Sequence record: MZ311864.1 | From: Escherichia phage vB_EcoM_LNA4 | Length of the DNA stretch: 64,000 nucleotides | Reading direction: 5' to 3' (one strand) | Part shown: in pieces, positions 45,158-64,000 of the stretch | Position numbering within the stretch: the stretch's first letter is position 1 | Layout of the letters: each line of letters opens with the position of its first letter | Notes under the pieces: generated by a model | Database searches by the model: none | Told to the model about the DNA's origin: nothing | What the model saw: the letters and a program-made list of their open reading frames with translations, nothing else | Made by a program: the position numbers and the translations under genes

Positions 45158-46063
45158 ATGTTTGATGTGAAAAAGAAATTTACCGCCAGTGAGATCAAAA
45201 GTCTAGAAGAACGTTATCGTAAAAAGGTTGAGCGCACAAAGAAACGTGGCCTTGAGTTCAGCCTGACGCTTGATGACTGGTTCATGATGGGTGAGAAGCT
45301 CTTAGGTATTGGCAAATGTGACTATACCAACATGGACTTTAGTATGCGCTCTGTGCATGGTGAGAAAGACCCTCTTTATCCAACCGTTGAGCGTATCAAT
45401 GATAAGAAAGGTTATGTCCGTGGTAACGTTTGTGTTGTCCTGCAACGCGCTAACGAACTGAAAGATTGCTTGGTTGACAAGAAGACGGCAATCACTATAA
45501 TTGAACCACTTGATCGTGAGATCGTTCAGGCAATGATGCTGAACATGTCAAAAGAGCATATGGAACAACTGAAACTAAAATATATTCCACAAGAGGAGAA
45601 AGAAATGCCAGTAGATACTTCTGTAGTTGTAGATAAAGTAGAGATTTCTGAAGAGCGCACCGCGTCTTCCGCAATGGAACTTGCTGAACAACATTTCCAC
45701 AAACAACCACCTACGGCAGAAGAAACCACTGCACCAGTGGAAGAAAAGCAGAAGCTTCCAGACGATGTTGCTGTGGCACTGGCCTACGCCAACTACTGCA
45801 AAACATTCTCTGATGCGGGTATGAACGTTTCTGTGACCTATGCACAATTTAAGGCGAAGTATATTCGCAACACCTGCTCTCTGACCGGAGAGAAGTTGTC
45901 TGGAGAGCCAAAGGCGATCCTTATCATGGATCTGAAAGTCGGTTTTGCTAAAGACAACTTCATTATTGTGTCGAAGAAAATGGAAACGGCGCTTACTCAA
46001 CTGATCATTCAGACAGAAATGAGCCTCCCTAAAATCACTGCGATGCTCAACAAGGTGGTGTAA
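45158..46063 (+). CDS. hypothetical protein with internally duplicated domain
   Basis: 301 aa; two related segments ending in G(Y/F)xxxN(V/F)x(V/I)V. Confidence 0.5.
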   Translation: MFDVKKKFTASEIKSLEERYRKKVERTKKRGLEFSLTLDDWFMMGEKLLGIGKCDYTNMDFSMRSVHGEKDPLYPTVERINDKKGYVRGNVCVVLQRANELKDCLVDKKTAITIIEPLDREIVQAMMLNMSKEHMEQLKLKYIPQEEKEMPVDTSVVVDKVEISEERTASSAMELAEQHFHKQPPTAEETTAPVEEKQKLPDDVAVALAYANYCKTFSDAGMNVSVTYAQFKAKYIRNTCSLTGEKLSGEPKAILIMDLKVGFAKDNFIIVSKKMETALTQLIIQTEMSLPKITAMLNKVV

Positions 46064-47818: not shown

Positions 47819-48188
47819 GCTAATTGTTACAGGACTCACTGTAGATGTTGACTTTATGTACAGTGGGTCAATGGTCAGAATCGGTTTTCATGAGGGAAGA
47901 GACTACATTGAGTATCTGATCTCCTCTAATCGCCGTGCATTGTCCATTAAGAGATTCAAAAACGCCAGATGGGGAACCATAATTGAACCAGACTTCACTG
48001 TAAATCCTTTGGATATCAGTGACGAAGAGGATTTTATGGTGAGTATTCTTCCGGGAATGAATCATTTCGAGCGTTCTTTGTACAAAATGGCAGGTATTGT
48101 CGCGAAAATGTGGCATAACGATGCTGATGAGAACTATGCTCGGAACTACGTCATAGAGTATCTTAAGGATTACCTGGTGGCACCATGA
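47802..48188 (+). CDS. hypothetical protein
   Basis: 128-aa ORF. Confidence 0.45.
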   Translation: MNTQNKLIVTGLTVDVDFMYSGSMVRIGFHEGRDYIEYLISSNRRALSIKRFKNARWGTIIEPDFTVNPLDISDEEDFMVSILPGMNHFERSLYKMAGIVAKMWHNDADENYARNYVIEYLKDYLVAP

Positions 48189-48481
48189 GGATAGATAAGT
48201 CTTTCAGTGTGTTGTGCTCATATGGAATCCTGTCAAACCCGAAGGTCTCACCAACAGATCTTCGGGTCTATCTGTACATCAAGTTCAGGTGGCAGTTTTT
48301 CCAGAGTAAGGGGGCTGAGTTCGTAGAGTCTGTAAGCACCATAGCAGAGGCCGTCAGTATGAGTCCCAGAAGTGTGCAGAGGTCATTGAAGAATCTTGAG
48401 TCTCTTGGATACCTGGAGGTGGTTGAGAGGTCAGGGAAAACAAGCCTCTATATTCCGCTTGACGAACTGGTTAAGAAGTAG
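48185..48481 (+). CDS. winged-helix DNA-binding protein
   Basis: STIAEAVSMSPRSVQRSLKNLESLGYLEVVERSGK HTH-like segment. Confidence 0.5.
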   Translation: MRIDKSFSVLCSYGILSNPKVSPTDLRVYLYIKFRWQFFQSKGAEFVESVSTIAEAVSMSPRSVQRSLKNLESLGYLEVVERSGKTSLYIPLDELVKK

Positions 48482-48716
48482 CCAACCCCCGACAAAAACG
48501 TAGGGGGAGGGGTGACAAAAACGACCTACGATATAATAAAGAACTAAATAATAAAGAAACAAACAAATAAAATAAGATCTTTATAAAAAAGACTTGATCT
48601 AAAGATTTGTTAGTGTATAGTTGGTTTCAAGAGGAAGTGATGGAGCAACAGCGAAACACTTCAGATGTGTGTGGAAGTTCAATGTGCTCGGAGGCATGGG
48701 CGACAGGAGCTTCTAA

Positions 48717-50734: not shown

Positions 50735-51559
50735 ATGACTACAGTATTTCATACCACAGAGATCATTCCCCACAACAAGAAACGTTTTGATGTTCCGGAC
50801 ATCGAGACAGACCTGAAAAAGATCTATGAAAGCACAGAGCATGAGCTATCATATCTTGAGTTTTCAAGTGATCCTGATGATGAGACTGACTTTGATAAGC
50901 AAAAGGGCAAGGTGGAGTCGGAGCTTGAAGAACTTAAGTCCTATGCAAAGAGTTCTGAGATTGCTGATTACCAGGCCTACGTTGAGGCGCTTGAGCGACA
51001 GATTGAAGCCCTGACATGGAGCCTCCTCAATGTTGCTCGCCGTGCTGATAACATGTCCCGTGATATTGTATCACTCGACAACAGAATGGACAGGACGGAG
51101 ATTGCAGACGAGTTTGACTACATCGTGGGAGATGCCCTCAACGAACTTGGGTGCGAAATGCCTCTACGCAGATGTCTCCAGGAGCGTGGCTGGAATGAGT
51201 GGCAAAGGGATTACCTGAACAGTATCATCCCCACCAACAGGGCCATAGAGCTTTTGGTTCATGCAAGTACACCAAGTGAAATGGTTCTCGGTATTGATAG
51301 CTGGATTTCAGTGCAGGATGACCGTGTAACCATCATAAATGGCGATGACCGCATCCACATTGGCAAAGCGTCTGATGAGATTGCTATCCATACGTTCATA
51401 GATGGTAAAAGTTCTTTTTTCCTGACGGCAGACCTGAAAGATATTTTCATGGACATCCTTCATCCAACTGACGAAGAGATTCAGATGTATGAGATGGCCC
51501 ACCACAAGAGCTATGATATTTGTATGTGGCGTGATATTTTCGGCAAGAAACCCGAATGA
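50735..51559 (+). CDS. hypothetical protein
   Basis: 274-aa ORF; RBS lies inside the repeated GCTTACAGGAGCTTT element. Confidence 0.5.
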   Translation: MTTVFHTTEIIPHNKKRFDVPDIETDLKKIYESTEHELSYLEFSSDPDDETDFDKQKGKVESELEELKSYAKSSEIADYQAYVEALERQIEALTWSLLNVARRADNMSRDIVSLDNRMDRTEIADEFDYIVGDALNELGCEMPLRRCLQERGWNEWQRDYLNSIIPTNRAIELLVHASTPSEMVLGIDSWISVQDDRVTIINGDDRIHIGKASDEIAIHTFIDGKSSFFLTADLKDIFMDILHPTDEEIQMYEMAHHKSYDICMWRDIFGKKPE

Positions 51560-51623
51560 AAACTGTGTGATATTTGCCCTTGATATTTGTCAGGGCATTT
51601 TGAACTGGAAACCAAAATGAAAA

Positions 51624-51650
51624 TCGAAATGGTTTTCGAAATGGTTTTCC
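51624..51650. repeat. tandem CGAAATGGTTTTC repeat (x2)
   Basis: cgaaatggttttcgaaatggttttcc read directly. Confidence 0.6.
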
Positions 51651-51827
51651 TTTCAGGTGTCCTGGTAAATCCATTTTATTGTGAGTTAAGATCTCAAACC
51701 CTCCGACAAATTATCTCAAATCTCCCAGCGCAACATGCTGATTGTTAAGGAAATTCACAGGCACGAATGCAGTAATTATGTCAAAATTCCAGAAATGCTA
51801 AATCCATTTTATTGGTTGTTAAGTCTG

Positions 51828-52033
51828 GGTACTCGATCACTTTTTCGATTTAGGAATCGTATTTTTTCTACACCGTTCAAAAAATTTTTCTAGGTAGAGA
51901 TCGGGTTCTCGATCGATTTTTCAAAATCGAGATCGTATTTTTTCTCGCTATCGAAAAAATTTTCGCGCCCGGTTCTCGATCGACTTTTCAGTTTCAAAAA
52001 CGTATTTTTTCTATACACGCGAAAAAATTTTTT
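51828..52033. repeat. three tandem direct repeats of about 65 bp (iteron-like)
   Basis: GGT(A/T)CTCGATC..TTTTTC....CGTATTTTTTCT......AAAAAATTTT repeated three times. Confidence 0.7.
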
Positions 52034-52408
52034 GGGATCAATAATTTTCTCACACACGCACACGCGATGTCAAGATAAATTTTTATGTTGAATGGGAAGC
52101 ATTCTCATTTAGCTTTTTGAATGATAATCATTCTCGTTTGCAGAATGACGGGCACCCCCGGTGTTTTGTACTCCGGTTTCAATGTTCCCGCTATGTCATA
52201 ATAATAGCATAGCCAGCCCCAGGATCAAGCGGCTTTACAAATCTTTACAAATCTCAAAAGTCCGAACTACCGGCGATTCACCTTCCGACCTGGCACCCGC
52301 GCCCGGTACGTTAGCCCCGCCTTTTCGCCGTGGGGTGGCGTTTTCTCTTCTGTCTGATAAATATAGCCCAGGGCCGCACGGATTGCAAGCCCCAGGACAA
52401 AATATTTT

Positions 52409-52600
52409 TTAGTCTTCCCGGCTATCCCATAACACCGCGCCGGACTCACTCACTGCCTTTGTGCCATAGTAAAACCCGGACACGCTCGCACGTTCTGCAA
52501 ACGGCAAAGGAACGATCCTAACCTGGGGCGCTCCGCGCTCACTCTCCCAGGTGTACAGGGTTACCATTGTTTCGCTTGCAACTACTTTCCCGTTTGCCAT
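52409..52600 (-). CDS. hypothetical protein (early-type gene on minus strand)
   Basis: 63 aa; GAGAGGTAAACGAAATG signature as in plus-strand early genes; TTGCAT..TATAT promoter-like upstream. Confidence 0.45.
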   Translation of the reverse strand: MANGKVVASETMVTLYTWESERGAPQVRIVPLPFAERASVSGFYYGTKAVSESGAVLWDSRED

Positions 52601-52703
52601 TTCGTTTACCTCTCTTGTGTGTGTCCTTATATAGTACACGATCCCCGCCGGGATGCAACCACACCGGGCAAAAAGATTTTTAAAATATTTGCATCCAGGG
52701 GTA

Positions 52704-52732
52704 TTGACGGTAATTAGTAAAGCGTTTACTAT
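52704..52732 (+). promoter_or_regulatory. sigma70-like promoter
   Basis: TTGACG-17 bp-TACTAT. Confidence 0.55.
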
Positions 52733-52782
52733 TCATCTCATCAGGGCGACACACCGCCGCCCACACTCAAAAGGTAAAGCAA

Positions 52783-53313
52783 ATGGACACTATCGAAACT
52801 TTCAACTACTCTTCAAACGGCATTGATTTTACTGTTAACGTTGTTAACTTTAATGAGTTTACCGGGTTCGCGGATCAATGGGAAATGACCGACGATCACG
52901 AAGGTGGGGTAACGGTTCAAAATCCGCAAGCCTGCCGAAACTCTTACAAGTACGCGATCCCGCTTCAATACAGCTTGAAAGAAAGGATCGCCAACCTGAT
53001 AAGCCAGGGTGATGAGAATCCATCGGCTAACGCTTACAAGGCCGCACAAGAGGCATTAGAGCGCGATTTAAACGCTAGTGATTATGGTTTCGTGGTAACT
53101 GCTACCGCAAACGGGATCACGCTCCTGGACGGCGAAACAATGGGGTGTAGTTTCGATTATTCATATGATGATAATGAAACGTTGATCGACGCTGCAAAAG
53201 ATGTTTACAAGGAAAACGGGATCGACGCCGAAGCCCTGGAAGCTGCAAAGAAAGCAGGCGCGGATCTGCTGTCTAATATCGACGGCCTGAAAAATATTTT
53301 AAAAGTAGCTTGA
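52783..53313 (+). CDS. acidic hypothetical protein
   Basis: 176 aa, Asp/Glu-rich; AAAGGTAAA-type SD. Confidence 0.55.
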   Translation: MDTIETFNYSSNGIDFTVNVVNFNEFTGFADQWEMTDDHEGGVTVQNPQACRNSYKYAIPLQYSLKERIANLISQGDENPSANAYKAAQEALERDLNASDYGFVVTATANGITLLDGETMGCSFDYSYDDNETLIDAAKDVYKENGIDAEALEAAKKAGADLLSNIDGLKNILKVA

Positions 53314-61645: not shown

Positions 61646-62011
61646 ATGGATCTTAAGAAAATCAATCTTTTAGCCCTGAAAAAGGGTGATATGCTGTTTC
61701 GTGGGTCTTTGTGTGAAGTCCTGGAAATATCAGCGCCGTTTATGCGTGGCTATGGTTATGATAACCATTATTACAAGGCCGAAACGGTAGCGATCAAATG
61801 TCAAGCCGTATATGATTACGATGTTAACTATTCAAAAGAAAGCGGCAAGCCATTAACGCCCCGTGAATATGTTTTTGATTATCCGATTGAATCACAAGTG
61901 ATGATCGTTACATCTGGCGAAACGGTCACCGTGACAAGCGCTACCGGGAATTTTGACGATAAAACAGGTCATTATCTGTTACCCGGTCAAACAATTAATG
62001 TTATTGAGTGA
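61646..62011 (+). CDS. hypothetical protein
   Basis: 121-aa ORF. Confidence 0.5.
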   Translation: MDLKKINLLALKKGDMLFRGSLCEVLEISAPFMRGYGYDNHYYKAETVAIKCQAVYDYDVNYSKESGKPLTPREYVFDYPIESQVMIVTSGETVTVTSATGNFDDKTGHYLLPGQTINVIE

Positions 62012-62448: not shown

Positions 62449-63406
62449 GACATACAACGGCAAGCCTAACAGATAAACCCTCTCAAAACGCGTTATATTG
62501 CGTTTAATCGTGTATCTTTACCCGCCTTTGACTCACTCACACCCCAAAAATGATAACGCAGGTTATCAAGTGAATAAACACCGTGTTTTTATGCAAATTG
62601 AGTGAATACGAAGCAAAAACCCTGAAATGATAACTTTTCTCATCTAACCCTTTGTGTGAACTGCCTTTTTTGAGCATAGAAATCATCTTTTGTCAAATAA
62701 AATATCGTTCGCGTAATCGTGGGGAGTGGCGCGAGCGGAGCGAGCGACACAATAACACGAAGGGTAACTCAAACGATAATAAATATCGTTTTCGTTCGCG
62801 TTATCGTGGCTCGTTAGCGCTATTGTCGCATAGCGATTCAATGTTACACATTGAACCCGTAAACGGGCAAGGCTAAGCGTTAACAGACAGGATGACTAGA
62901 ATGATGAATAATTAACAATGCAACTATTACATAGTTGAAGTATTTTATAACCTCGCCACGATAACACCGATTAGCTGATCGCTAATCGCCCTCGTGTTAT
63001 TGTGTCGCCAGGTTATGAAGATCAAAGGCATTTAATTAGCCTTTAATGGTTGACAAACCATGATTAATAGAACTGTAAACCAGGCCGCTGGCCTGCTAAT
63101 TGCTGGTTTTCTTGAGCATGAAAAGGTGTGCGAAGCTGGCTAACTGTCAAGTGTTTTATTGATAGGAAAAGTCTATTAAAGCCAGGCGTAGCAAGGGCTA
63201 AACGAGAATTGTTATCATGTGGCTAAATGCTCAAGATAGGTAGAATTGCTAAACACATATTTCCCTCTGTGTCAAGCTTTTTGTGGCAAATTTACAAAAT
63301 ATTTTCCATTTGAGAATGGTTTTCATTTCGAAACTGAAATCGAAATCGTATTCAGAATGATTATCATTTGCATTCTCATCGACAAAACACCCCACAAAGT
63401 GAATAA

Positions 63407-63425
63407 TAACAGGTGTAAACTGTCA
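63407..63425. repeat. 19-bp direct repeat, copy 1
   Basis: TAACAGGTGTAAACTGTCA. Confidence 0.8.
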
Positions 63426-63598
63426 TGCTGGTAACATGTAGCAGGCTATTGGTTGCTGTCTGGTATGGTTCACTGATGCAATGATAACATATGTGACTAT
63501 ATGGCCTGTTGCCCGGTGACCTCTGGTGCGTATAACGTGTATTATGTTAAATAGAGACATTCACACAAATATAACCAAGTCAATAGCAAATCGTGCTG

Positions 63599-63617
63599 TA
63601 ACAGGTGTAAACTGTCA
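63599..63617. repeat. 19-bp direct repeat, copy 2
   Basis: TAACAGGTGTAAACTGTCA, identical to copy at 63407. Confidence 0.8.
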
Positions 63618-64000
63618 CATTGCTAATAGTTGCACTTGTAATCATTAGTTTCGTTGCGAAATCATCATGCAATCATCGTGCCAAGAACTCGATGGGGTCT
63701 CGTGGTCAGACCTCTCAGATATTTTGTAAAGATCCTTGACAACCCGGAGGGGCTGTGATTGTCCGTCTAACACATCAGACATAGAGACAACAGATATTTT
63801 CGTCCCCAAGAGATACAGACCAGGGGCCTCTTTTATTTCCCTCCGGGCGGGGGAGGGGGTGGGTTTTAGTTAGTGATGAGCCACTGACAAGGCGATATGC
63901 TTATGCTGTAAACATGTTGTGTGGTATGTGTTTATGGAATGGCGTTTTATAGACATGACAATTTGTTAATGAAATGTACACTATGGTAGGCAGGGGCGGT

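Follow-up and report, generated by a model that had tools for sequence, protein, structure and literature searches.

The primary origin of phage T7, oriF and oriG of phage T4 and the ColE1 origin are all transcript-primed: transcription from one or more promoters enters a non-coding, A/T-rich stretch located downstream, and a dedicated initiator is not required. In ColE1 the transcript, RNA II, is 555 nt long. Iteron origins, such as lambda ori and those of P1 and R6K-type plasmids, are made up of direct repeats of about 22 bp set on one face of the helix, in A-tract-rich DNA, the repeats varying in concert within a genome. An array of three direct repeats recalling both types is described here in Escherichia phage vB_EcoM_LNA4 (sequence record MZ311864.1), of which a stretch of 64,000 nucleotides, called the window, was analyzed. 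The array resides in a mostly non-coding region of 1.2 kb (51560-52782, the hub), singled out in an original prediction as a replication origin or a regulator-binding hub. Judged by sequence comparison, the repeats are a real cis-element under selection, and their pattern of variation suggests a protein-binding array. An origin function is possible only in the promoter-driven sense of T7, T4 and ColE1; this reading is favored here tentatively, a regulatory array being almost as likely.

The three repeats cover positions 51828-51889, 51904-51965 and 51971-52032, with start-to-start distances of 76 and 67 bp, and are 66-74% identical to a reference copy. Tandem Repeats Finder (TRF) reports 1.9 copies of a 67-bp unit. 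The three tandem repeats originally predicted are real, the unit being 67-76 bp and not about 65 bp long. With their spacers, unit 1 extends over 51828-51903 (76 bp to the next unit) and features box A (GGTACTCGATC), box B (AATCGTATTTTTTC) and box C (CAAAAAATTTTT), unit 2 over 51904-51970 (67 bp), and unit 3 over 51971-52033; none is assigned to a strand. The TTTTC motif occurs eight times on the + strand of the array, at 51842, 51864 and 51886 in unit 1, 51918, 51940 and 51960 in unit 2, 51985 and 52007 in unit 3, with gaps of 22, 22, 32, 22, 20, 25 and 22 bp, the background rate being 0.48 per 220 bp. Mostly spaced by 20-25 bp, the sub-repeats have a weak consensus, and the clear unit is that of 67-76 bp; the pattern is retained in most relatives. 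Twelve A/T tracts of at least 4 bases are found in 230 bp, the window maximum (mean 2.3), in helical phase inside a unit and out of phase between units. Each unit carries a pure A/T block of 10-12 bp. The composite core motif of the repeat is absent elsewhere in the 64 kb, where zero copies are expected by chance.

Three other uses of the repeats were discarded. Protein coding is contradicted by the frame running across the repeats, which stops after 52 codons in the window. Coding sequences annotated at this place in relatives (GAP31_043A, PVP-SE1 gp202) are not conserved, and a reading frame cannot be kept, since the 67-bp period is not a multiple of three. Sigma-70 promoters on the + strand of each unit score 6.6-8.3, that is at background level, and the key last T of their putative -10 element is lost in the KB57 and TH18 phages. 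GATC sites (Dam/SeqA), a possible mark of origins, number six in about 200 bp, but the window maximum, seven, is found elsewhere, and Henunavirus units have none.

The window is assigned to a Seunavirus, its segment 51400-52900 being 94% identical to Cronobacter phage vB_CsaM_GAP31 (Seunavirus, Vequintavirinae); these are rV5-like myoviruses with genomes of about 148 kb. The array was monitored in nine genomes, those of the window phage, PVP-SE1, KB57, TH18, pEa_SNUABM_55, CR3, rV5, phi92 and tuntematon. Three units spaced by 63-78 bp reside in the same gap of 0.9-1.3 kb in eight of the nine (six Vequintavirinae lineages, and phi92 of the Stephanstirmvirinae). Spacings are 75/67 bp in PVP-SE1 and TH18, 74/66 in KB57 (Mydovirus), 74/71 in pEa_SNUABM_55 (Henunavirus), 78/63 in CR3 (Certrevirus), 65/74 in rV5 and 67/75 in phi92; tuntematon has just two clear units, the outer ones, at a distance of 138 bp. 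An ortholog of unit 1 is found in all eight other genomes. A 'non-coding' box, whose correspondence to the hub locus was not checked, is shown without comment in the genome map of the rV5 paper.

Orthologous units are kept in close relatives, identity between the window phage and PVP-SE1 being 0.87 when units of like position are compared and 0.79 otherwise. In distant genomes, units are at least as similar within a genome (0.62-0.81) as between genomes. Box B varies by lineage, with one variant shared by the three units of a genome: CGTATTTTTTCT in the window phage and PVP-SE1, CGTATTTG in most units of KB57 and TH18, CGTATTCTC in CR3, AATGGATTT-type sequences in Henunavirus, GGATTTT in rV5. 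Concerted variation, fixed copy number and fixed unit length argue for a double-stranded DNA element read by a protein, and against a gene or a folded RNA.

Sigma-70-type promoters were sought with a simple position-weight matrix, and 52 sites in the window score at least 11.5. Most lie on the strand of the genes, which validates the scan. The clearest exception is provided by three - strand sites in the hub, scoring 11.8-12.9, which fall within 350 bp and are aimed at the repeats. P1(-) (52044-52073; TTGACA-18-GAAAAT with the TG of an extended -10; score 12.9) points leftward into the array, unit 3 beginning about 4 nt downstream of its predicted start; a site scoring 10.6-12.9 is found at this position in five genomes, and the extended -10 is readable in all six genomes of an alignment (A1). 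P2(-) (52201-52254) consists of TTGATC-16-TATTAT with a TG, the promoter elements lying at 52228 to 52201 on the - strand, and of an upstream repeat of 2.2 copies of CTTTACAAAT. P3(-) (52360-52388; TTGCAA-17-TATATT) is the best conserved, a strong leftward promoter scoring 11.8-17.3 being found at the equivalent place in 9/9 genomes. Assuming a start 7 nt past the -10 element, the leftward promoter is followed by the near edge of the array after 280-357 nt and by its far edge after 494-561 nt, again in all nine genomes, and the distance holds in rV5 although the intervening sequence partly differs. Neither an open reading frame (ORF) nor a - strand terminator-like site was found downstream of the leftward promoters. 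As at transcription-primed origins, the promoters are oriented into a non-coding A/T-rich element.

The first 90 nt or so of the predicted P3(-) transcript correspond to an ultra-conserved GC-rich block (52262-52350, - strand) featuring a long imperfect hairpin at 52272-52321. All 16 pairs of the hairpin are formed in 20/20 sequences, the loop being variable; one pair is G-C in some and A-U in others, and the G-U pairs would not form on the + strand. Probably a leftward non-coding RNA begins with this structured block. The + strand of the block ends in a terminator-like hairpin followed by a T-run (52326-52350). The block is common to Vequintavirinae and Stephanstirmvirinae, and an exact 26-mer pattern drawn from it was found in 15 viral contigs; in rV5, the search pattern used did not detect the conserved block present in the other genera. 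No Rfam 15 family matches the window at gathering score, and only chance-level matches (E about 5) are seen in 51500-52850. In Raoultella phage Ro1 (6870-7040), unrelated sequence with an apparent - strand ORF resides between CTTTACAAA repeats and the conserved block, a replacement indicating that the 5' flank of the block is either dispensable or prone to mobile elements.

Predicted operators of the iron regulator Fur lie between the promoters and the array. The main one (TTGAATGATAATCATTCTC, 52117-52146, no strand) matches the Fur consensus GATAATGATAATCATTATC at 15/19 positions, has an overlapping match 6 bp on and includes a conserved CAGAAT; next to it is a degenerate Fur-box-like palindrome (TTGAATGGGAAGCATTCTCATTT, 52088-52110, no strand), which is the stem of a + strand terminator-like hairpin. 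Matches to the consensus with at most four mismatches number four in the window, 0.21 being expected from shuffled sequences, and 2-7 at the hub of each of the nine genomes, up to 17/19 in rV5. The box is mostly invariant in the six-genome alignment. In a direct comparison, 16 contiguous bases (ATAATCATTCTCGTTT) were found to be identical to the E. coli K-12 promoter of fhuA, a classic Fur-repressed gene; BLAST of the Fur region against E. coli genomes gave no match at that database size. Overlapping sites 6 bp apart are the signature of footprinted Fur sites (Chen et al., PMC2189734). Boxes in the hub resemble fhuA-type operators both in this overlap and in their match to consensus (15-17/19). 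They differ from iron-uptake operators in residing in a strictly lytic genome, in being predicted from sequence, and in lying between leftward promoters and the array, not clearly over one promoter. A + strand promoter-like sequence, TTGAAT-18-CAGAAT, overlaps the boxes with a score of only 7.9; the boxes may control this promoter or, alternatively, lie in the path of the leftward transcripts. Reports of Fur boxes in rV5-like phages were not found in the searchable literature.

Further Fur matches with four mismatches are seen at 61754 and 62775. In rV5 (2500-2720) a module made up by the Fur box and GGGCACCCCCGGTG..TTGTCTCCC is duplicated, the copies being 134-136 bp apart. An rV5-type Fur-box segment, 86% identical, occurs in records MG065635, MG065659 and MG065677 ('Campylobacter phage C12, C5 and A13b', 75-141 kb), apparently rV5-like coliphage sequences for which a Campylobacter host is recorded.

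For the array, the reading tentatively favored is a transcription-activated replication start zone of the T7, T4 and ColE1 type. The array would act as cis-acting double-stranded DNA, its three 67-76-bp units each formed by three sub-repeats of about 22 bp with a T-tract plus C at the end; it is probably curved intrinsically and occupied by a protein at many sites. Host RNA polymerase would transcribe toward it, leftward and early, from the three tandem sigma-70-type promoters, the strongest and most conserved of which would start the non-coding structured RNA. This RNA would cross the Fur operator cluster and reach the array about 280-560 nt downstream, and the transcript would open or prime the A/T-tract array for the Pol I-type polymerase and the T7 gp4-like primase-helicase of the phage. 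Fur bound between promoter and array could modulate the start zone. Counted in favor are the conservation and concerted variation of the array, its TTTTC substructure and A/T-tract density, the three - strand promoters and their constant spacing from the array, the ORF-free transcript with its structured 5' block, and the presence in the phage of Pol A polymerase, primase-helicase and Dda-like helicase genes.

The likeness to the known transcript-primed origins resides in promoters firing into an A/T-rich non-coding stretch, in a mechanism in which no dedicated initiator would be needed and, for T7, in the combination of a Pol I-family polymerase with a gp4-type primase-helicase. The promoter-array distance of about 300-560 nt recalls ColE1 RNA II, and the + strand hairpin with T-run faces the 5' end of the leftward RNA, an arrangement resembling that of ColE1 RNA I. 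Unlike in these systems, the promoters of the hub are suited to host RNA polymerase and come in threes, the target is a strict three-unit repeat array and not a plain AT-rich spacer, and Fur operators separate promoter and target; the R-loop or primer is here only inferred. With iteron origins the array shares A-tract-rich and putatively bent DNA and concerted variation within a genome, and may share direct repeats of about 22 bp on one helix face. The iteron-like character originally proposed may hold for the nine T-tract sub-repeats of about 22 bp, and does not extend to a classical iteron origin: the sub-repeats are weak and nested in 67-76-bp units, no consensus DnaA box was found in 51560-52782, and no cognate initiator was found, the nearby initiator-like protein tracking other repeats.

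Several observations weigh against a start zone. The AT content of the array is only moderate, the window having its AT-richest stretch at 48.5 kb, and RNA folding of the repeat region is unexceptional (z = -1.3 to -2.0). P1(-) falls below the scan threshold in CR3, rV5, phi92 and tuntematon. GC skew in the window tracks only the direction of transcription and does not switch at the hub; the authors of the rV5 paper were likewise unable to locate an origin by skew analysis. Replication data for this phage group were not found in the searchable literature, and no candidate regulator could be tied to the array. Finally, a more canonical origin candidate (48482-48620) is found 3.3 kb upstream of the hub.

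This candidate is adjacent to the gene for a 98-aa protein (48185-48481) with an HTH_36 (winged-helix) domain, which matches PHROG 'replication initiation protein' families and is so annotated in relatives. The protein occurs in two allele types, 31-36% identical, and the short direct repeats immediately 3' of its stop codon differ between the two: type B is followed by two copies of TGCAAAWTTTGCA in PVP-SE1 and BIS47, type A by two copies of GACAAAAACG in the window phage and by three CCGGACA in KB57. Next to these repeats comes a shared stretch with the highest AT content in the window. Between KB57 (type A) and BIS47 (type B), the winged-helix proteins are 33% identical and the triple arrays 98.6%. 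The allele and its own flanking repeats switch together while the array stays constant, which indicates that the protein is matched to its own repeats and not to the array; the same co-variation makes 48482-48620 the more canonical candidate. Winged-helix proteins had been named as an example of early proteins that might bind the region; binding of the array by the protein at 48185-48481 is contradicted by this lack of co-variation. The cassette at 48185-48620 is a candidate origin or regulator separate from the array. The 274-aa protein encoded next to the hub was discarded as initiator, having no Pfam match and no initiator signature; its only PDB matches are weak and to vimentin (E 0.007-0.08), and the AlphaFold model has a pLDDT of 44. 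The origin region of ICP1 was considered as an analogue and set aside, as no comparable hub is found near 60 kb.

A role for the array without any part in replication is nearly as plausible as a start zone. The repeats would be a regulatory or architectural protein-DNA platform for early transcription, a bent multi-site operator whose binder may be either a phage early protein or a host nucleoid protein. Once bound, the protein would shut off or tune the leftward promoters, from which transcripts would otherwise enter the upstream genes in antisense, and array and Fur operators together would set the balance of divergent early transcription. The geometry is apt: unit 3 lies so close to the predicted P1(-) start that a bound protein would block promoter clearance, and would act as a roadblock to transcription from P2(-) and P3(-); the array is located between convergent transcription units, with no - strand terminator-like site found there; and the predicted Fur operators are 84 bp away. 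Concerted variation is expected for operators of one protein, and small palindromes of the GATTTT..AAAATC type reside inside the units. The regulator-binding hub of the original prediction is borne out to the extent that promoters and predicted Fur boxes surround the array over 1.2 kb. The lack of a candidate regulator counts against a platform as well, and a platform would leave unexplained why strong promoters point to a stretch without anything to express, and why the number of units (three) and the promoter-array distance are constant.

The hub has a further counterpart in the injection stop region of phage T5, which is untranslated over 1.2-1.7 kb, highly conserved, and features 66-bp direct repeats, nine short repeats and boxes for host factors (Davison, bioRxiv 10.1101/866236). 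By analogy, the hub might be a DNA-entry checkpoint or a terminus-pairing element, marking the inner end of the genome segment which enters first, and either binding Fur or a membrane-associated factor or pairing with motifs of the terminal repeat. This is unlikely, though the likeness is manifold: both regions measure about 1.2 kb and are mostly untranslated, lie about 8% from a genome end, which is putative in the case of the hub, are strongly conserved, and combine direct repeats of about 66 bp with nine short repeats and boxes for an abundant host protein. The boxes are for Fur in the hub, for DnaA in T5. The position of the end comes from Klebsiella phage KPP-1, for which PhageTerm identified a 514-bp direct terminal repeat (DTR; PMC9862379). 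The KPP-1 repeat maps to about 63245-63770 of the window, in a non-coding region carrying motifs related to those of the hub, and the physical end of the window phage may lie near the right window edge. The mapping would set the hub at about 11.5 kb from the putative end, about 7.7% of the 148-kb genome (7.9% in T5), the early gene array being then transcribed toward that end.

Two motifs connect the hub with the DTR-equivalent region. The doubled motif noticed in the original prediction is an exact doublet of a 12-bp unit (CGAAATGGTTTTC type; 51624-51649, no strand; TRF 2.2 copies, 100%), of which a related copy is found at about 63330-63369, with a local alignment score of 33 between the two (shuffles: mean 20.4, sd 2.5). 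Coding was discarded for the doublet, relatives keeping the DNA motif and not a single reading frame. The same 15-nt Fur core recurs on the opposite strand at 63353-63377. Against an entry signal stand the size of the terminal repeat, about 0.5 kb and not 10 kb, and the location of the hub outside it: the T5 region falls within a long terminal repeat at the point of shear and the hub does not, and in location only the fractional position (7.7%) resembles T5. The end position was moreover inferred from another genus, and no report of a two-step DNA transfer in these phages was found in the literature searched.

It is equally doubtful that the repeats act as RNA, as three modules of an abundant early non-coding transcript working, for example, as a decoy or sponge for a host RNA-binding protein. 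Strong promoters do point into a region with no ORF, and a structured block conserved upstream hints at a relevance of the leftward RNA. Structured RNA within the repeats was nevertheless rejected, given the weak folding z-scores and an intra-unit A/U hairpin which is not kept in relatives. No Rfam family matches the repeats, what is conserved are short sequence boxes and their spacing and not base pairing, and there is no - strand terminator-like site that would define a discrete RNA.

A bolder form of the start zone, less probable still, is that of an iron-gated, RNA-primed origin in a strictly lytic phage, the structured leftward RNA passing the Fur operators to open the array or prime DNA synthesis there. 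Fur would act either as a roadblock or as the repressor of a + strand antisense RNA whose end would face the 5' end of the leftward RNA, in the manner of ColE1 RNA I. In a weaker variant, the multi-copy Fur boxes would titrate Fur, turning on host iron uptake for the phage.

Hardly credible is a genome end or packaging (pac/cos) site, for which three GenBank records (EC152, RUS_R7, phiWec189) would speak, each with a start or end no more than about 110 bp from the array or Fur box: the EC152 record merely lacks 8 bp at the junction of its ends, RUS_R7 carries an 80-bp assembly overlap labelled attL/attR and shows two units, one having collapsed, both breaks being probably assembly artefacts caused by the repeats, while the locus is internal in other records and, in KPP-1, about 8 kb separate the terminal repeat from the array.

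In the window, tail-fibre genes occupy 0.5-11 kb of the + strand. The block at 11.6-45.2 kb is on the - strand and encodes the Pol A polymerase, the T7 gp4-like primase-helicase, the Dda-like helicase and rIIA; from 45.2 kb onward the genes are again on the + strand. An ORF at 45158-46063, with an Srd-like anti-sigma/sigma-70 decoy region and an HNH endonuclease profile, marks the point where the - and + gene blocks diverge, and the cumulative GC skew has its minimum there. The hub sits between the 274-aa ORF (50735-51559), which ends the + block, and small + strand genes starting at 52783. Directly 3' of the stop codon of the 274-aa ORF, a + strand terminator-like hairpin read from the sequence (51575-51604; TGCCCT...AGGGCA, then TTTTGAA) closes the upstream block. 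Left of the array, the duplicated GTTAAG element reported earlier is 28 nt long (AAATCCATTTTATTG..GTTAAG) and resides at 51663-51690 and 51796-51823 (no strand), the copies being 86% identical; the second has a promoter-like TTAACA-16-TAGCAT on its - strand, with a matrix score of 9.4.

At the right end of the hub the divergent promoter pair already noticed was recovered, TTGACG-17-TACTAT on the + strand (52704-52732) serving the early gene array from 52783, TTGCAT-16-TACTAT on the - strand (52658 to 52631) a small gene. The hub is devoid of long ORFs, as stated in the original prediction, and yet this - strand gene (52409-52600) encodes a 63-aa protein of the DUF7170 family (Pfam E = 9.3e-25; PHROG 4653), annotated in relatives as GAP31_044 and PVP-SE1 gp201. 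The small gene, the Fur boxes, the three leftward promoters and the conserved structured block had all been missed.

Isolation of rV5-like phages (Vequintavirinae and Stephanstirmvirinae) for use in therapy and food safety is widespread. The conserved cis-elements of their hub are now defined, namely the three-unit array, three leftward promoters, predicted Fur operators and the structured block, and the array is now set apart from the winged-helix gene and its flanking repeats, which form a second candidate origin. In strictly lytic phages, Fur operators matching fhuA this closely would couple infection to host iron status, and, if the iron-gated reading were true, the onset of phage DNA replication itself would be tied to it.

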